A stretch of 13,470 nt of DNA from a bacterium. Lineage in GTDB: Bacteria > UBA10199 > 2-02-FULL-44-16 > DYJF01. The number at the start of each line of letters is the position of its first letter. The stretch's first letter is position 1. The stretch spans positions 1 to 13,470 of the forward strand of contig JBGSNL010000017.1 of the NCBI GenBank assembly GCA_041739675.1. The letters run 5' to 3'. This document shows positions 5,994-13,470 of the stretch, one piece after another. The notes below the pieces were generated by a model that saw only the letters and a program-made list of their open reading frames with translations, was not told the DNA's origin and searched no databases. Position numbers and translations under genes: made by a program.

Positions 5994-6032
5994 GCCCAGA
6001 AAATGAAAATTCATTTTCTGGGCAACTTTTTT
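5992..6032 (+). terminator. Perfect 16-bp inverted repeat followed by a T-run; probable intrinsic terminator of the catabolic operon (or an operator)
   Basis: TTGCCCAGAAAATGAA (5992-6007), AA, TTCATTTTCTGGGCAA (6010-6025), then CTTTTTT. It lies 70 nt after the last operon gene. Confidence 0.6.
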
Positions 6033-6048
6033 GGAGTAGTGCCGATAA
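6022..6048 (+). promoter_or_regulatory. Sigma28 (FliA/SigD)-like promoter
   Basis: GCAACTTT-N11-GCCGATAA compared with the sigma28 consensus TAAAGTTT-N11-GCCGATAA: perfect -10, correct spacing, 27 nt upstream of ATG 6076. Both boxes recur identically at 11389-11415. Confidence 0.7.
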
Positions 6049-6075
6049 TGATAGGGGGGAACGTGTGGGGAACAT

Positions 6076-8709
6076 ATGTCATTTGACCCTATAACAAAGC
6101 GATCAGATCGCCCATGTCAGGATTACTTTAACGAGTACTGCGCGGACGAATTCGGCGCGAAGCAGGCTGCACCCGATGAAACGGGTCAGGAAAGCGCAGC
6201 CGGGACGCCCGATCAGACGGCAGCGCAGAATGCGCAAGCCGCATTTCAACGTCTTCTCGCCCGCAGAAATGCTCAGGCTGCGTTTCAGAGACTCCTGGCG
6301 CGTCAGCAGTCCCAGCCCGCCGAGCCCGGAAGTTACAATTATTTCGTCCAGGCCCTAACGAAGTATCCTGAAACGCCTGCGGCGGCTGTGGAACTGGGTG
6401 CAGCCACCTTGACTCAGTACCGTGCCGAACTGGCCGCTCTCCTAGCCGAAGTGACAAACTCTACGATTCTGACTCCCGAACAAATTTCAAATCTTCAGGA
6501 TCTTATAAGTTCGCGCGATGTGAGTGTGGAACAGGCGCAATTGCTGGCGCCCGAGCCGCTCGCTCTGCCTTCACGCTCCCAGATCAGGGGTTGGGAGAGA
6601 GTCTTGAATGGAATCGACGGGCAGAGGATTGAGAGGCTTAGTGCGGCGACTGCGCAGGAAAAAATTCAGGCTATCGACGATATAATCGATAACCTCGACG
6701 GGTATGGGCTGTACGATAGCGAACCAGAGAATCTCACGGCCTTGAGAAATCGCGCTGCAGTTCTAAAATCGCTGCTTCAGCTGGCCATCGATATCGATTC
6801 GGTTCCGCACGGCGACGCCGTTGCGGCGCTGGGTACCGAAGGTGCGTTCAGTCCGCTTCTCTCAAAGTGCAGGTTTCTCACACTGAAATTAAACGCACTT
6901 ATTATCGACTCGGATCTCGACATAAGGAGCCGCCACAAGGACAAACTAGTCGAACTCCTGAACAAATACAGGGACGCATTGACAGAAGGATTGGAGACGT
7001 TGAGGGCCAGAATCGCTACACCACCTCCTTCGCCGCCTCCGCCTCCCGAACCTGTCGAAACGCCGGTTGAACAGCCGCTACCCGCACCGGAACCATATCC
7101 CGAAGTGCTTCCGCCGGAAAATCCAGCTCCCGTTCAGCAACCGTCTGCTCCAGCGGTTGAGCTTCCCGACCGCGACAAGGTCCGCGGATGGGATCGGACA
7201 TTGGACGGCGTCAACGGAAAGAAAATAGACGAGTTGAGTCTTGCTCAGGCTCAGGCGAAATTGGAAGACGTCACAGGGATCATCAACGAATACGATTTGT
7301 TCAATCTGGGCGACAATGCCACGACAGAACTTGCGAACCTGAGGAACAGGGCGGCGGTCTTGCAGTCTCTGCTGCAGCTGAGGGTCGACATTGACGCCAT
7401 CGCGCACGGGAACGACGTTCTGGAGCTTGATACACCCGAGTCGATCACCCCGATCCTTTCGAGATGCAGATTCCTCATGTTGAGGCTTAATGCACTTGCA
7501 ATTGATGACGCGCTGGACATACGCGGCCGCCATAAAGAAAAATTGCTGACGCTTCTGAGCGGTTATCAGGACGTTTTGGCGGAGAGAAAGACCGCTATCG
7601 AACAGATAGCTGCTGCAGAGGCCGCTGTTGCGGATCTGGAGGCGAAAGTTTCCGCTGCGAATTCAAGTATAAGCCAGATAGGCGCTTGCACGGTCTACAG
7701 GGAATATCAAACTCTGAAGAGAACGGCTCAAGAGACATATGATGCGGCAAACAGTCAGCTGGCAACGGCAAGAGCCGCGGTTCAAAGCGCCGAGGCGGCA
7801 TTCAATGCCGTTCCCAGAAACGCCAGAAGCGATCTTTCAGTCAGCTCGATCAGCGACAGGTTCGAAACTTCAGATGAAACGATGGGCGGGCTCTCGGTTC
7901 CAACGCAATGCGCCCGCTGCACGGATATCCCGGTTTTGCCTTCATACGAGCAGGCGACAACGGTCACTCGCGAGAGACCCCAAATGAGTATGGTTGGATC
8001 CGGTGCAGGGGCCGCTTCTGCGGGAAGCATCTATGAGCAATTCGATACGTTTATGAGAGAAAAGGTGAACCCCATAATAGATGAATGGTGGAACGGGCTC
8101 ACTGAAGACAATCCCCGCTACTGGATAAGAATCCATTTGAACGTTCATTATGCCCCCGATTCGGGTTGCCGCACATGCCAGAGAGGTACGATACACGACA
8201 TAATCGTCGAGCAGCCCGGTGGTCCTCAGTTCATAGGCGAGGAGAGGCTGGCTCAAATAAGGACTTTAGTTCAATACCTTCAGTTTTCGATTTCCGATAA
8301 CAGTCCGGACTTTGAAAATGGCCTTCTGAGCGGCCGCGATCTGGGTATAAATATGAGTTCTCTCATTGTTCATGCGAACTTCCCTTCGCGGGGAAGAGTA
8401 GTGGCCGCTTGCAGCAACCATCCGACAACGGAGCGCGCGACACACGACGAAATGATAGCGGCGGTGCAACGTGCAAGAAACAGCTTTTTCGGTGGCTACG
8501 AAAATCTTCGCCTCGCGATCGATCTGGACGCCAACTCAGACGGCTACGTGACGAGTGTCAAGATCACAGACGAGGGAGGCGCCGATCTTCAGCAATATAA
8601 AGACGATATTGAGGCTTTTGCCACGTCAATTGCTTTGAATATCAGGGTTCCCGAGGGTTCGCGCGGCGTAAGAATTGAACCGCTGCAGCCTGAGGAGGAT
8701 GAGGAGTAG
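6076..8709 (+). CDS. Uncharacterised 877-aa multidomain protein: tandem NAQAAFQRLLARR leader, duplicated 141-aa helical domain split by a Pro-rich linker, Ala-rich coiled coil, two putative TonB-C-like C-terminal domains
   Basis: Long ORF with a GGGGA RBS-like sequence. The internal repeats are conserved as protein but diverged at synonymous sites, which shows it is coding. No signal peptide or TM helix is visible. Confidence 0.88.
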   Translation: MSFDPITKRSDRPCQDYFNEYCADEFGAKQAAPDETGQESAAGTPDQTAAQNAQAAFQRLLARRNAQAAFQRLLARQQSQPAEPGSYNYFVQALTKYPETPAAAVELGAATLTQYRAELAALLAEVTNSTILTPEQISNLQDLISSRDVSVEQAQLLAPEPLALPSRSQIRGWERVLNGIDGQRIERLSAATAQEKIQAIDDIIDNLDGYGLYDSEPENLTALRNRAAVLKSLLQLAIDIDSVPHGDAVAALGTEGAFSPLLSKCRFLTLKLNALIIDSDLDIRSRHKDKLVELLNKYRDALTEGLETLRARIATPPPSPPPPPEPVETPVEQPLPAPEPYPEVLPPENPAPVQQPSAPAVELPDRDKVRGWDRTLDGVNGKKIDELSLAQAQAKLEDVTGIINEYDLFNLGDNATTELANLRNRAAVLQSLLQLRVDIDAIAHGNDVLELDTPESITPILSRCRFLMLRLNALAIDDALDIRGRHKEKLLTLLSGYQDVLAERKTAIEQIAAAEAAVADLEAKVSAANSSISQIGACTVYREYQTLKRTAQETYDAANSQLATARAAVQSAEAAFNAVPRNARSDLSVSSISDRFETSDETMGGLSVPTQCARCTDIPVLPSYEQATTVTRERPQMSMVGSGAGAASAGSIYEQFDTFMREKVNPIIDEWWNGLTEDNPRYWIRIHLNVHYAPDSGCRTCQRGTIHDIIVEQPGGPQFIGEERLAQIRTLVQYLQFSISDNSPDFENGLLSGRDLGINMSSLIVHANFPSRGRVVAACSNHPTTERATHDEMIAAVQRARNSFFGGYENLRLAIDLDANSDGYVTSVKITDEGGADLQQYKDDIEAFATSIALNIRVPEGSRGVRIEPLQPEEDEE
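6229..6303 (+). repeat. Coding tandem repeat NAQAAFQRLLARR / NAQAAFQRLLAR
   Basis: 39-nt unit; 12/12 amino acids identical while 10 of 12 codons differ synonymously. Confidence 0.95.
6565..7584 (+). repeat. Internal domain duplication (6565-6987 and 7162-7584) flanking a Pro-rich linker
   Basis: Residues 164-304 and 363-503 align without gaps, about 73/141 identical by manual count (LRNRAAVLxSLLQL, LSxCRFLxLxLNAL, LDIRxRHKxKL). Confidence 0.95.
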
Positions 8710-8717
8710 TCTGATCT

Positions 8718-10109
8718 ATGGGATTCAGGATAACAGACAAGCCTTTTAACGGGGGAGGCTCCGAGGCGGTGTATCCGGACGTCGCCGCCAAGCAGGAGGC
8801 CTCTCAACCCGAAAACGAAGATCAGCAGGCCGTAGCCGCATCAAATGCGCAGGCCGCCTTCGAGCGCCTTCTGGCGCGAAGGAACGCGCAGGAGGCCTTC
8901 CAAAGGTTGAGGCTGAGGGATCTGGTGAGCGATTCTCGCGCCAGACTGGACGAATTCAAAACCACTATCGCAAGTGCCCGCGGCGCTGAGGACGAGATGG
9001 GGCAGGTGGCTCCTATTGTGGTGCAACTGGCTGAATTAATTGGGGAGCTTGCCGCATATCCCGACAATCACGATGCAGAAGAGCTGAAAGAGGAGGCCTC
9101 ACACCTCCATGACGATCTTGTGGATCGTTGTTTCGAATTGTTCAAACAGCAGATAGAGGATTTGCCGCCGCTGCCTCCGCTGGAACTTTATTTTCAGGCG
9201 CGCGACGCAATAGATGGTTCTGAGGCATTCTCTGAGGCGCAGCGTGCGTTCCTTTTAGGACTTCTCGGGGACAGTTATGAAGAATTCAGGAGCGAAATTC
9301 TTGAGAGCGAAGCGGCAGAAGAAGTTTCCGAGGAAGAAACTGTGCCAGCTGACATTTTTTCTGCGCGTATAAACAACGATCAGAAGACCGAAGTTGAGAT
9401 CGGTGAACAGATCGACGTGATAAGAGGCGCATGGGACGATTTGTACGTCCACGGAATATGGCGGCAGCTTGCGGTTGAGCAGATACAAAGAGCGCTGGAC
9501 AATGGCGGCTCTGAAGACGCCATAACTGATGCCACACATATCATCGATGACGCGTTGGAGCTCGACCGGCAGGCAATAGAGGATGCCAACGAGGCCGCGT
9601 CGAATCTTCCTTCAAACCTTGCCGAGGATTCCAGATACATGGTGCCTCGTCTCGAGGACATAATGACGACGGTGCTGGATGAAATAGGAGTTGAGCCGCC
9701 GCCAATGGTTTCGACGGACCCCTTGCCGTTGGGGCGGCAGGAACTCATTCGCGACATCGGCAACGCGGCTGCGAATGGATATGCAGCTTATCTGAGAGAC
9801 AAACGGGCCGATATCAGAAGCGTGGACGATGACGTGCTGAGAAGCATGGGCAGCGAAATAATGGCGCCGGCATTTGTCTCCGAGTTCGAAATTTTCAGCG
9901 ATCAGGGACACATAACGGGCATAGTCGCGACACCCACAAATGTGGAGATTCCGCGCGAAGGCGCCTCTTTTCCCGTGGAGGAGATAGCCGAACGTATTAT
10001 TCAGAGCATCGGCGAAAGCGTGAGAATGCCCTGCTATATGCATTTCATCAGAATAAAGCTCAAGTTTGAAGTCAATCTCAACGAGGTCACTGCGACCATC
10101 ATCGAATAA
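8718..10109 (+). CDS. Uncharacterised acidic 463-aa protein with the same N-terminal tandem motif as the upstream gene and a putative C-terminal TonB-C/AgmX-PglI-like domain
   Basis: Long ORF 8 nt after the previous stop, with GAGGAG upstream. NAQAAFERLLARR-NAQEAFQRL at 8844-8909, a helical acidic middle, and no signal peptide. Confidence 0.88.
   Translation: MGFRITDKPFNGGGSEAVYPDVAAKQEASQPENEDQQAVAASNAQAAFERLLARRNAQEAFQRLRLRDLVSDSRARLDEFKTTIASARGAEDEMGQVAPIVVQLAELIGELAAYPDNHDAEELKEEASHLHDDLVDRCFELFKQQIEDLPPLPPLELYFQARDAIDGSEAFSEAQRAFLLGLLGDSYEEFRSEILESEAAEEVSEEETVPADIFSARINNDQKTEVEIGEQIDVIRGAWDDLYVHGIWRQLAVEQIQRALDNGGSEDAITDATHIIDDALELDRQAIEDANEAASNLPSNLAEDSRYMVPRLEDIMTTVLDEIGVEPPPMVSTDPLPLGRQELIRDIGNAAANGYAAYLRDKRADIRSVDDDVLRSMGSEIMAPAFVSEFEIFSDQGHITGIVATPTNVEIPREGASFPVEEIAERIIQSIGESVRMPCYMHFIRIKLKFEVNLNEVTATIIE
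8844..8918 (+). repeat. Coding tandem repeat NAQAAFERLLARR / NAQEAFQRLRLR
   Basis: Same 13-aa unit as at 6229-6303. Confidence 0.9.
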
Positions 10110-10124
10110 AGAGAAACGAAGCCG

Positions 10125-11159
10125 ATGCCCCCGATAAATGACAGAGATCCGGTCATGAAAAAACTCGTCGAACTGACGTGCGGGCCGGAATATGTGCATG
10201 AGCAAGGTGAACAAGAGATCGCGCCCGAATGCGAGCAGGCTGCCATCGCAATTGCAGGCGCACTGTCCAGATACTGCGGCTGTCCGTGCAGGCACACCGA
10301 GGATCCCATCTGCGCGATCTCAAACGACCCTCTGACACAGGAGGACGAGACGCTTCCTGAGGGAAGAGTTCACAATATCCCAGCGAGATTTGCCGATTTT
10401 TTACCGGGCGATCCTTCCAACCCGGATCCCATGTCAAGGGCCGGAATGCGTGACATTTTAGCTGGAACGAACTCTGAGTTTAGCGGCGCCTCTTTCGTCT
10501 ACTGGTTCGGCTATTGCCCGGAAGAGGTGCCCGACGCATGGAACATGCTCATGAGCGAGCACCGCCTCCCCGCGCGGTCAAACGCCGAAGCTTGCACGCC
10601 GCAGATGGCCATAGACGAAGATATTTTCAACACCCCCGCGGGTGCTTGGCTCTCCGTTGCGGCAAAGCTGGGCACATTGCCGCATGATACGCTCCAAACC
10701 CCATGGACGTTCGATCTCTCGCTTCTGATGCAGGCCGCAAACGGCTTTTACAGCACCGTGGGAGGCAGGCTATCCGTTACCCCGTCTCAGGGTCAGACGC
10801 TCTTTACGGGTGAGGACGGCCGCGAATCGGCGATGATTTACGGGGCGGGAGGGTATCTGGACGTGGGCTACTATGCGGCATTCTCAAGTAGTGTCGGGCT
10901 GCGCATATATGCGGATTTCGACATCGGCGCCGATTGGGCTGATGGCGAGGTCCAGATCGCCCCAAACGAGTGGATAGATGATTTTTCTAATTTCCGAATT
11001 CGTCTCGGATCCGGCCTGAAGTTGGTCATATGGCCCATAGACGGTTTTCAGATGGGCGCCGGCTTCGACTATCAGGCCACAGTCACGGAAGGCACGCCTC
11101 TTCCGGTTCATTCCCTTCTTTTTTCGGTCGATATGGCGTTCCGGCTCTCGGAATTTTAG
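10125..11159 (+). CDS. Uncharacterised protein: Cys-rich N-domain plus predicted 8-stranded outer-membrane beta-barrel (start could be 10155)
   Basis: The C-terminal half has eight alternating Gly/aromatic strands (WLSVAAKLG, WTFDLSLLMQ, FYSTVGGRLSV, YGAGGYLDVGYY, LRIYADFDIGADW, FRIRLGSGLKLVIW, FQMGAGFDYQ, HSLLFSVDMAFRL) and ends in Phe. No signal peptide. Confidence 0.78.
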   Translation: MPPINDRDPVMKKLVELTCGPEYVHEQGEQEIAPECEQAAIAIAGALSRYCGCPCRHTEDPICAISNDPLTQEDETLPEGRVHNIPARFADFLPGDPSNPDPMSRAGMRDILAGTNSEFSGASFVYWFGYCPEEVPDAWNMLMSEHRLPARSNAEACTPQMAIDEDIFNTPAGAWLSVAAKLGTLPHDTLQTPWTFDLSLLMQAANGFYSTVGGRLSVTPSQGQTLFTGEDGRESAMIYGAGGYLDVGYYAAFSSSVGLRIYADFDIGADWADGEVQIAPNEWIDDFSNFRIRLGSGLKLVIWPIDGFQMGAGFDYQATVTEGTPLPVHSLLFSVDMAFRLSEF

Positions 11160-11195
11160 GTTAAACACTTAAGGCATTGGTTTATTATTTACAAA

Positions 11196-11208
11196 TAACA
11201 AGTTGATT
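11196..11208 (-). promoter_or_regulatory. Putative IHF binding site within an AT-rich intergenic region
   Basis: The minus strand reads AATCAACTTGTTA, an exact match to WATCAANNNNTTR, inside the AT-rich spacer 11160-11390. It could be a chance match. Confidence 0.4.
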
Positions 11209-11388
11209 TATAAAGATATATGTACCGTGGCAATAAAAGAAATAAGAAGGAAAAAATGACGTACCGCGTATTATTTTCATCCAAAAACGGTGATAAAAAC
11301 CAACCTCAAAATCCACTGAATCTCTTGAATTTCAACAGTATTTTGGTCCCGGTTCTTAAGTCTTAGCTCTAAGCTCTCAGAAAACCAC

Positions 11389-11415
11389 GCAACTTTTTTT
11401 GGCCATCGCCGATAA
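11389..11415 (+). promoter_or_regulatory. Sigma28 (FliA/SigD)-like promoter, second copy
   Basis: GCAACTTT-N11-GCCGATAA. Both boxes and the spacer length are identical to 6022-6048, and it lies 88 nt upstream of ATG 11504. Confidence 0.7.
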
Positions 11416-11503
11416 TAGCTATGGAGGGATAGAACTCGTTAGCAGGTTAATGATTTGGGGGCGTAAGCGGTCTTGGGGGAAAAAAGATTTTAAGGAGGTA
11501 AAT

Positions 11504-12739
11504 ATGTTTTCAGGCGGCAAACTCACGATAACGATGGCACCGACGGGCGAATGCGTATCCCAGCAATGGGGCAATGAACCTGCGGCGGAGTGCAGCGACG
11601 CCATGGTGAGATTTAAAGAAGAGCTTTCGACCGCTTGCGTGGGTGCAGACGGTTCGGATCAATGTGCCGGCATCACCTCCGGCGTGAGCGATGACCTTCA
11701 ATCGATGACCTACGTTTTCGATGATGGTTTTCAGTGCGGCCAGCTTCCTGAAGCAACCCAGAGTAGATTCCCCGCAATTTTTGGAACTCCCGACGGTTTG
11801 CAGGCTTGTCAGAGTCTGGTTGACGGATTTGACTTCACTCAGCCCGTTGCGAATCCCGAGGTTCCGGTGGAAAATCCTGAAGTTCCCGCTGAAGGCGGCG
11901 GGCTGCATATCCCGGTAACCATTATTGACAACGGCGTCGTTCAGAATGAGGGCGACGAGCAGGTTGATGAGGCGGATGAGGGAACTGAAGCAAACGAAGA
12001 GCCCGCTGAAGGTGAGGGAGAAGACGACGGCAACGAGGGCGGAATTTCCACTCTGATGCTTTCAATCGGCCTCGGTTACGTCCATGCATGGGCGGACGGT
12101 CTGTATGATCCGTTCCCGACCTCCGGTTTAAGCGGCGGCCTGGACGGTGATTTCCCGAATGCAGGCGGCACGGGTGATTTTCCGAACGCCGGCGGCTCGA
12201 ATGCAGACGGCTACGGCGCGGACGCTTCAAACGGAATGAGTATCGATGCCACGCTTAAGTATTTTCCGCTCAACATGGGCGCATTCGGCGTTTATATAAG
12301 TGCAGGCGCCGAGTTTGGCTGGCAGCCGGCCCCCGAGATATCGAACACGTCTCTTCTTGATCCTTATGTCAGCAACAAGACCAATCCCTCCGACTTCTTT
12401 TTTGCCGGAGGAAGAATTGGAGCCGGCGCACGTCTGGATGTCGGATTCGCGCTGGATCTGGGAATCGGTGTTCATCTCGGCTGGTTGGGACTTGGTTCCG
12501 GCGGTCCCGGTTTCCCGACGGATATCGACACATACATAGATTATAGTGAATTCAGCTACGGGCCGTATCTGAGGCTGGCGCTTGGTTACAGCTGGTTCAC
12601 AGGCTTCATTGAATATAAATACGACGGCGGGCATCAGCACGGCTTCGTCGATCCGTCGTTGGGTGTGGAAGGAAGAGAAATAAGCCCGGACAGACATACT
12701 TTCGGAGCCGGAATTTCAGTCGACATACCACTTTTGTAA
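11504..12739 (+). CDS. Uncharacterised 411-aa protein: Cys-rich N-domain, acidic linker, predicted 8-stranded outer-membrane beta-barrel
   Basis: A perfect TAAGGAGGT RBS (11491-11499) places the start at ATG 11504, not 11399. Eight amphipathic strands (LMLSIGLGYVH, MSIDATLKYF, VYISAGAEFGW, FFAGGRIGAGARL, LDLGIGVHLGWL, FSYGPYLRLALGY, FTGFIEYKY, HTFGAGISVDI). No signal peptide. Confidence 0.82.
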   Translation: MFSGGKLTITMAPTGECVSQQWGNEPAAECSDAMVRFKEELSTACVGADGSDQCAGITSGVSDDLQSMTYVFDDGFQCGQLPEATQSRFPAIFGTPDGLQACQSLVDGFDFTQPVANPEVPVENPEVPAEGGGLHIPVTIIDNGVVQNEGDEQVDEADEGTEANEEPAEGEGEDDGNEGGISTLMLSIGLGYVHAWADGLYDPFPTSGLSGGLDGDFPNAGGTGDFPNAGGSNADGYGADASNGMSIDATLKYFPLNMGAFGVYISAGAEFGWQPAPEISNTSLLDPYVSNKTNPSDFFFAGGRIGAGARLDVGFALDLGIGVHLGWLGLGSGGPGFPTDIDTYIDYSEFSYGPYLRLALGYSWFTGFIEYKYDGGHQHGFVDPSLGVEGREISPDRHTFGAGISVDIPLL

Positions 12740-12789: not shown

Positions 12790-13470
12790 ATGAAGAACAA
12801 AAAAACCATCGGCGGGTTGATCGTGCTCATGGCGATCCTTCTCGCCCCAGCGGCGCTGTTCGCGGTCCCTGCGGGGATGAGTGCGGACGACTGCGAAGTG
12901 AACAGTCAGCTGTGGACGCTGTATCCGCCGCCTGACATGTTCACGCTTCCGCGTGCGATGGCCCATGCCAACATGGACTCATCGACGGGGCTCAGGGCGT
13001 GTCAGCGGTCTATCACCATCAAGGTGGATAGCACGATCGATATGCTCGATCCTTTGCCCATCCGCATCTCGGGAACGGGCACGGATTCGCGCTTCCAGCT
13101 CATAGGCGACACTGATGCCAACGGAGGCTACGTCGTATTGAATGCCAGAAGGATAGACGCCGATTCCCTCCCTGAAGGAAGAAAGTGCGCCGTGATCGTA
13201 TACGGCGGCTATGTCAACATGCAGAAGATCAAGATTGTGGGTCTCCATGACGGCATGACCGGCGTTTGCATTAAGGGCGACTATGCCGAGATGGACGGCG
13301 TGCAGATTTTGGGCGGAACCGTCGACGACAGCGGAATGAACGGCAACGGTTTTGTGGGCGATACGACAACGAAGAGAATCAAGATTCTCCCCACGTCTTC
13401 GGTGCAGGGCGTTTCCGGCAAGGGCGTCTGGTTCACCAATCCCGCGGGCGAAAACACACTGAAACCGACC
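12790..13470 (+). CDS. Secreted protein with Sec signal peptide, probable right-handed parallel beta-helix; 3'-truncated by the window edge
   Basis: Not in the ORF track because there is no stop in the window. GGAGG at 12779-12783, then 227 open codons: MKNKKTIGGLIVLMAILLAPAALFA-VPAG...TLPRAMAHAN...SITIKVDSTI...VVLNAR...AVIVYGGYVNMQKIKIVG...GVCIKGDYAEMDGVQILG. There is an alternative in-frame ATG at 12763. Confidence 0.85.
   Translation, partial: MKNKKTIGGLIVLMAILLAPAALFAVPAGMSADDCEVNSQLWTLYPPPDMFTLPRAMAHANMDSSTGLRACQRSITIKVDSTIDMLDPLPIRISGTGTDSRFQLIGDTDANGGYVVLNARRIDADSLPEGRKCAVIVYGGYVNMQKIKIVGLHDGMTGVCIKGDYAEMDGVQILGGTVDDSGMNGNGFVGDTTTKRIKILPTSSVQGVSGKGVWFTNPAGENTLKPT

Follow-up and report, generated by a model that had tools for sequence, protein, structure and literature searches.

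In the established view, bacterial outer-membrane barrels cross the inner membrane by Sec, and membrane barrels must pass this membrane unfolded. In the stretch of DNA analysed here (the window: 13,470 nucleotides, contig JBGSNL010000017.1 of assembly GCA_041739675.1, from a bacterium of the UBA10199 lineage), four consecutive genes termed A–D code for proteins devoid of a hydrophobic leader, two of which (C and D) are predicted to be such barrels. A different passage is known from the flagellar type III gate, which delivers leaderless beta-lactamase fusions to the periplasm (PMC10308186); this resembles the route considered below in that a type III gate replaces Sec for periplasmic delivery, and differs in that an engineered reporter rather than a natural route is concerned, and no membrane barrels. 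Myxococcales possess a secretion system of type III (T3SS*, mxan_2434-2464) which shares with the present genome the export gate, ATPase, SctJ ring and sorting-platform genes as well as the lack of a flagellin and, apparently, of an identifiable secretin or needle (PMC3459982, PMC12075869). Myxococcales machines without secretin and needle were proposed to translocate proteins or to build a periplasmic structure (PMC3459982), and secretin-less type III systems to represent an intermediate of flagellum and injectisome, the cargo of which is still to be identified (PMC3459982, PMC12075869). In M. xanthus, lysis of prey requires the machine, which is found at contacts with prey cells; its effectors are called "potential" (PMC12075869). 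In Bdellovibrio, FliA accounts for 92 of 140 attack-phase promoters (TTAAG-N16-CCGATA), a precedent for a global phase switch (PMC3627812). All four sources are cited from partial texts.

The window represents the entire contig C8 of genome G000 (1.91 Mb, 88 contigs, 94.6% complete), in which 1707 genes were called with our own gene caller; labels such as C2, C5, C8 or C71 denote contigs of this genome, gene C being that of the 344-aa product. A (6076–8709; 877 amino acids, aa), B (8718–10109; 463 aa), C (10125–11159; 344 aa) and D (11504–12739; 411 aa; ATG with AGGAGG) form a row of co-oriented open reading frames (ORFs) on the forward strand, followed on the same strand by the start of E (12790–13470), which is cut by the contig end. 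All four products are acidic (net 5–12%). No Pfam or NCBIfam family exceeded its cut-off for A–D, their domains or homologues, nor for the start of E, and no characterised operon matched the cluster. The component folds are already known; the class of leaderless barrels and its link to one promoter may be new, and a literature search, outside which lay supplements that may bear on the point, yielded no paper on type III-exported leaderless barrels or on this promoter.

The absence of signal peptides from A–D and the presence of one in E, as asserted by the first-pass annotation, was confirmed by a hydropathy heuristic. The best 12-residue hydropathy within the first 60 aa amounted to −0.24 (A), 0.54 (B), 1.41 (C) and 0.92 (D) versus 2.98 for E. 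Homologues behaved alike, with 1.06–1.85 for nine C, 0.71–1.62 for five D, at most 1.23 for four A and at most 1.34 for the four B scored (five further aligned B sequences were left unscored), versus 2.8–3.0 for E. Alternative starts add no leader, as the in-frame upstream extensions of A–D (7, 1, 5 and 48 codons) contain no hydrophobic (h-) region. A lipoprotein or Sec signal hidden behind a long leader was rejected, since no h-region was found internally (best 19-residue hydropathy 0.9–1.4) or upstream. A twin-arginine leader is likewise missing from A–D, and neither A nor B contains a transmembrane helix. All nine C sequences are leaderless, and all five D sequences begin with MFS[GA]G (MFSGG in D). 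A start of the form M-x-[SAP]-[GA]-[GA] occurs in about 20 genes of the genome, including D, another two leaderless barrels and some small hydrophobic ORFs; such starts lie at C6:39056-50374 and on C36, C37, C54, C71 and C81.

The order promoter–A–B–C–promoter–D–E is kept in G001, a genome of the same genus, and in the metagenome loci L128 and L129 (L128 being cut before the first promoter), with frames open in all three lineages. Two promoter-type sites, gene order and leader absence are thus conserved across three lineages, and the A–E cluster is genuine and under selection, evolves fast and has a narrow range. Identities to G001 are 26% (A), 30% (B), 54% (C) and 20% (D); the upstream ChsH2-type gene retains 76% identity in L129. 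Protein searches returned nine C, two D and ten B-profile matches (two of them partial). What distinguishes the closely related D alleles L128:5405-6583 and L129:9246-10268 is a linker insert that is Asp/Cys-rich and thrombospondin-like.

C comprises a Cys-rich helical N-domain (residues 1–165) and a predicted eight-stranded membrane barrel of OmpA/OmpX type (residues 170–342; model and fold searches), with alternation of lipid-facing and lumen-facing residues in 8/8 strands. It shares predicted fold, strand faces and C-terminal barrel position with the eight-stranded outer-membrane barrels OmpA, OmpX, Ail, NspA, OprF and OmpW (PDB 9fzc, 1qj9, 1p4t, 4rlc; Dot/Icm porin III 9nh2). It differs from these by the lack of a cleavable Sec signal, in place of which stands a helical, Cys-containing domain of 110–170 residues, by the lack of a Pfam outer-membrane protein (OMP) hit and by identities of 5–18%. 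D consists of a Cys-containing N-domain, an acidic Pro-rich linker and a C-terminal part predicted as barrel from sequence features: Atlas feature scores reached 0.95 to unnamed clusters and 0.94 to DUF6850/PorT-type proteins, and the strand heuristic of 59 lies above the 99th percentile. No Pfam OMP family was hit by C or D. Of the proposed beta-barrel pair, C is predicted by model and strand faces, and D by sequence features. A complex prediction of C with residues 205–463 of B scored 0.03 against a mark of 0.32 and, with the controls not folded, speaks neither for nor against a contact.

C contains an invariant C-x-C-x-H..C cluster. The kinship of its N-domain with that of D, postulated in the first-pass annotation, is weak in a head-to-head comparison (hhalign 5.6% and E 0.007, extending over 24 columns; whole profiles 1.9%), and is bridged by a third gene located on contig C71. 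In a leave-one-out test, the N-module was recovered for C, C88, C71a and C71b. The same Cys-helix module (E 5e-7) is carried by an 879-aa TPR protein without a barrel (L106:947-3583; C71:45247-47883), which indicates that the module is portable.

Across G000, 27 proteins were flagged as barrels, of which 20 possess a leader (TonB-dependent receptors, an Omp85 protein and an OMP_b-brl protein among them) and seven do not. Five of the seven leaderless barrels lie within 7.5 kb behind a same-strand promoter site of the type found at A and D, versus none of the 20 leader-bearing ones (Fisher p 2.6e-4; the thresholds of this census are our own, and the paralogues are not independent). A barrel gene on C65 is followed by an anchored signal-peptide protein, as D is by E.

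The sites in question, GCAACTTT-N11-GCCGATAA, are located on the forward strand at 6022–6049, 27 nt 5' of A (same position in G001 and L129), and at 11389–11416, 88 nt 5' of D, where an AT-rich intergenic stretch ends (same position in G001, L128 and L129); 200 shuffles produced 0 matches. Of the identical promoters reported before, the boxes are indeed the same, whereas the spacers differ. The attribution to sigma28 holds for the -10 box GCCGATAA and the fixed spacing; the -35 box reads GCAAC in place of the standard TAAA/TTAAG, and at the same spacing TAAAG occurs at 0 and TCAAG at 2 sites. With a weight matrix trained on G000, 69 sites of at least 19 bits were detected; 84 local shuffles gave 0.45 such sites on average and never more than 4, and a shifted spacer 1–10. 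Of the 70 best sites, 69 lie outside called genes, in intergenic regions 5' of co-oriented genes; the single exception (C38:4699) is located in a primase-like gene (by reading), 1.3 kb before an rpoD-like sigma gene. The strict pattern was present in 61/61 genomes searched (2–64 copies each; controls near zero). Scans for sigma70 promoters and terminators remained at chance level. E has no promoter-type site of its own and is probably co-transcribed with D. The first-pass annotation had arranged the four genes as two pairs in two units; four consecutive acidic, family-less ORFs are present, and no barrel-pair unit exists, the second unit consisting of D and the signal-bearing E while C groups with A and B.

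The promoter heads about 69 genes, including housekeeping genes and signal-peptide proteins, and by reading of the sequences also plainly cytoplasmic proteins, e.g. SMC- and RecN-like ones. Its leaderless members are long, acidic and lysine-poor (median 3.1% vs 7.3%, n=52 and 1051, p 1e-20); several signal-bearing members are equally lysine-poor. Promoter-led orphans of other genera (L139-L196; G008, G003, G010) often start rich in Ser, Pro, Thr and Met, tips which we take to resemble type III effector N-termini.

A sigma factor of the anticipated FliA type was found in the genome among the type III genes; its two halves stand at the ends of contigs C5 and C87 and gave FliA/WhiG as best hits, each below cut-off. 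In a relative the gene is uninterrupted, and 60/61 genomes contain an orthologue. Region 2.4 aligns with FliA and WhiG, whereas the region 4.2 helix reads SKSW[TV][SC]R[LM]H throughout the 30 loci inspected, versus ESRVSQ[IL]H in WhiG/FliA, which fits a kept -10 and a changed -35 box. This sigma factor likely reads the promoter, the pairing being deduced from sequence. The regulon would share with those of FliA the -10 box, the fixed spacing and a large size with many uncharacterised and surface proteins, and differs by GCAAC at -35, by the recognition helix SKSWTSRLH and by the absence of a flagellin gene to control. Six genomes (G014, G033, G041, G048, G049, G050) hold flagellin genes alongside this sigma factor.

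Within the type III locus, SctR, SctS, SctN and FliO scored over cut-off, SctJ, SctT, SctQ and SctL/FliH were weaker best hits, and a SycD-like TPR protein was weak. SctV and SctU are encoded on contigs other than that of the core locus. At C31:11465-16324, sctV comes immediately after secA in the same orientation, with FHA- and TPR-like genes beside it, and sctU (C37:10367-11434) follows a run of promoter-led orphan genes bearing a basic tail described below. No flagellin was found in G000, and only 6/61 genomes contain one. The two secretins of G000 stand, judged by their neighbours, in a type II secretion and a type IV pilus setting and could be shared; no dedicated type III secretin was found in this genome, and a needle search was blank in G000 and equally in control genomes. 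The export route presumed earlier, type III or flagellar-like, is thus matched by an export apparatus in the genome, which is non-flagellar. From T3SS* it differs by sctV and sctU set apart from the core, by the failure to find a Tad/Kil-type ATPase (the three secretion ATPases over cut-off all lie on C80, leaving no Tad-type one) and by a FliA-type sigma factor with a large regulon within the locus; no barrel cargo is named for the Myxococcales machine in the partial texts of PMC3459982 and PMC12075869. VipB and VirB4 were not found in G000, nor any HlyD over the type I cut-off; SecA is single-copy, and the genome further encodes two Omp85 proteins and a fusion of VKOR with DsbA (VKOR-DsbA).

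At L133:206-1685 (C81:6406-7885), three small ORFs combine hydrophobic patches rich in Ala/Gly with coiled coils and appear type III translocator-like by eye; two of them start with MFSG or MISAG and lack a Pfam hit. Of the called genes, 22/1521, most of them lysine-poor, end in an Arg/Pro/Val/Ala-rich, acid-free tail of 30 residues (contigs C2, C14, C15, C20, C24, C30, C36, C37, C54, C59, C60 and C71). The tail occurs in 8/68 promoter-led first genes, and two tail genes carry HATPase_c or SNF2 helicase domains. It looks like a shared C-terminal address of a second cargo class.

As A–D lack Sec and Tat leaders and the type III gate is the only other inner-membrane translocase found, a type III route is proposed. 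Whether sigma28-switched barrels have swapped the Sec signal for the Cys-helix module and reach the own or a prey outer membrane without Sec, via a secretin-less type III machine, we regard as evenly balanced. The more specific proposal, that A–D cross the inner membrane through this machine into the cell's own periplasm, is tentative and falls somewhat short of probable. Here, the FliA-type sigma factor would switch on the units, and a gate without secretin and needle would release unfolded cargo into the periplasm, with the N-terminal tip or the Cys-helix module standing in for the Sec signal. The VKOR-DsbA fusion might oxidise the conserved cysteines and an Omp85 protein insert C and D as small beta-barrels into the own outer membrane, while A and B would stay behind as unanchored TolA-like periplasmic rods. 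An acidic, lysine-poor envelope layer specific to one phase would result, in the building of which Sec-exported partners such as E take part. If so, the A–D class would represent natural substrates of a Myxococcus-type machine, and type III a second inner-membrane translocase for outer-membrane biogenesis; such a path would be undescribed, and categorically new if the export route is shown. Conserved leaderless barrels tied to one promoter mean that some other route exists in this lineage, and the cluster supplies short, testable N-terminal segments together with a promoter marking further candidates.

Several observations weigh against this proposal. Leader and barrel calls rest on our own heuristics (hydropathy for the former), and no single N-terminal signal is common to A–D, a start being shared only by A–C or D. 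The leave-one-out test missed the N-module for D (rank 3, E 2.2), C65 and two C6 genes. Two of the seven leaderless barrels have no promoter site within 450 nt, and none was detected among 78 genes within ~3 kb of 58 stretches around strict sites in G008, G003 and G010, some cut by contig ends; the class may accordingly be a genus-level invention. The C family and full-length B were each found in 2/93 genomes of the class, which gives the barrels a much smaller range than that of the type III machine. No type III gene carries the promoter in G000, and housekeeping genes belong to the regulon. Signal-peptide-like starts are not depleted behind the promoter (15/69, one gene counted twice, vs 432/1541 elsewhere, p 0.27): the enrichment in signal-less proteins for which the first-pass annotation had suggested a genome scan was not found, the promoter was rejected as a marker of signal-less genes, and co-regulation alone is no mark of non-Sec cargo. 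Finally, the related M. xanthus machine acts on prey lysis and hence points outward (PMC12075869, partial text).

That last point leads to the delivery of A–D as type III cargo into another cell, as surmised in the first-pass annotation; with a prey bacterium or protist host as target, its outer membrane or an organelle membrane would take up the barrels, and free TolA-like domains would disturb its Tol-Pal/TonB systems. The M. xanthus machine at prey contacts, required for lysis (PMC12075869), and the attack-phase programme led by FliA in Bdellovibrio (PMC3627812) speak for it in their accessible portions, as do the small genome (1.9 Mb), the fast divergence of A, B and D, the strong lysine depletion of leaderless promoter-led proteins, and regulon members with ATPase or helicase domains and a common basic tail. 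We nevertheless consider it unlikely: no type III secretin, no needle match (with a blank control) and no fourth, Tad-type ATPase were found in G000, several signal-bearing regulon members are just as lysine-poor, and D shares one unit with the Sec-exported, tail-anchored E, as the C65 barrel does with its anchored neighbour, which favours the own envelope. Less likely again is a passage of A–D by Sec or some other general pathway, in which the M-x-S-G-G tip or the Cys-helix module would act as a signal that is non-classical and stays uncleaved, with the type III locus a merely co-regulated neighbour. The some 20 genes with such a start agree with this, and so does the closest leader-bearing barrel of the genome, which ranks just behind the leaderless ones, so that the latter probably derive from an ordinary OMP; the missing internal h-region, the single SecA, the lack of a twin-arginine leader and the lack of the tip in A, B and C do not.

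TolA-type domains act in the periplasm, and the strict apolar and polar strand faces with best matches to outer-membrane barrels likewise disagree with A–D remaining unexported, in the cytoplasm or at the inner membrane face of a dormant or lysis stage, their cysteines binding metal. The lysine content of A–D (1.2–2.5%) lies moreover at the extreme of non-exported proteins (5th percentile 2.5%). Although A–D show no export signal, the C-x-C-x-H..C cluster of C could bind metal and the regulon includes the cytoplasmic SMC- and RecN-like proteins, we judge this explanation quite improbable. Leaders lost through wrong starts, frameshifts or decay could be suspected in a metagenome assembly with a 48-codon open stretch 5' of D. 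The upstream stretches, devoid of an h-region, and the frames open in three lineages speak against such artefacts, and the conserved starts of C and D homologues (9/9 C leaderless, 5/5 D with MFS[GA]G) contradict them, rendering this origin very improbable.

Proteins A and B, to which the export proposal also extends, share the N-terminal tandem motif ascribed to them earlier: two copies of the amphipathic NAQAAFQRLLAR lie in A (6229–6303, forward strand) and two copies matching them in B (8844–8915, forward strand). Among the six-frame ORFs of the entire genome AQxAFxRL is present four times, with two copies in each of these two proteins. The repeat is private to a lineage and common to A and B within it (NAQAAF[QE]RLLAR here, A[AL][LI]ARAQEA in G001, YLQWLRQG[AS]G in L128/L129; none was found in others). 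In G000, synonymous differences separate 14/22 codon pairs of identical residues, a proportion close to that expected of unrelated codons; a recent DNA copy is not supported by this, and the codon pattern suggests upkeep at the protein level. In L128 and L129 (22/58 and 22/56 pairs differ) the picture is less clear. Speculatively, the species-private repeat might serve as a pairing or docking code.

From N- to C-terminus, A is predicted to consist of a disordered N-terminus, the tandem motif, two helical repeats with a Pro-rich spacer, an Ala-rich coiled coil and two TolA/TonB-C-like domains, and B of the tandem motif, a helical bundle and a C-terminal domain related to that of A. The Pro/Glu-rich spacer (7012–7161, forward strand) keeps its prolines in the alignment; a long Pro-/Ala-rich spacer is confined to A. 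The end domains (8023–8673, forward strand; residues ~650–770 and 790–866) show an alpha-beta-beta-alpha-beta order in a low-confidence single-sequence model (predicted local distance difference test score, pLDDT, 46), which also displays helical repeats, the spacer and a long coiled coil; the A orthologues have one such domain versus two in A. Searches with this model returned nothing under E 0.001 in Foldseek and nothing beyond generic helical bundles in VIA. Profiles of the end domains of A matched the lineage's own TolA-like domains (TonB_2/TolA by Pfam) with hhalign 80% (E 1.4e-5, score 34.8; shuffled maximum 14.3) and those of B with 70%, whereas B alone reached 9% with the TolA-like domains; neither Pfam nor a PDB profile search (nothing under E 0.4) gave a hit for the end domains of A and B, and an Atlas search with B 335–463 gave no usable one. 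The TonB-C-like character claimed for both is hence a prediction, drawn for A from the profile match and the low-confidence model, and for B at most by way of A.

With TolA/TonB C-terminal proteins (Pfam TonB_2 PF13103, TolA PF06519, TonB_C PF03544), A and B have in common the Pro-rich spacer, the Ala-rich helix and the predicted end domain with an x-D-G-x-[IV] hairpin, besides the profile match. They differ by lacking an N-terminal membrane anchor, a Pfam hit and adjacent exbBD or tolQR genes (window, L020 and L129); ordinary TonB- and TolA-like proteins are encoded by other genes of the genome. A role as TonB/TolA energy transducers was rejected, as neither protein can be one without a membrane anchor.

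Orthologues of E comprise 1319–1383 aa, are Cys/Asp-rich and end in a hydrophobic stretch with a basic tail. Genes for an acyl-CoA dehydrogenase, a methylmalonyl-CoA mutase, a thiolase and ChsH2-type proteins are located 5' of A in the window. Between 5927 and 6025, a short repeat with six copies in the genome is followed by a perfect 16-bp inverted repeat, the right arm of which overlaps the -35 box of the promoter-type site of A.
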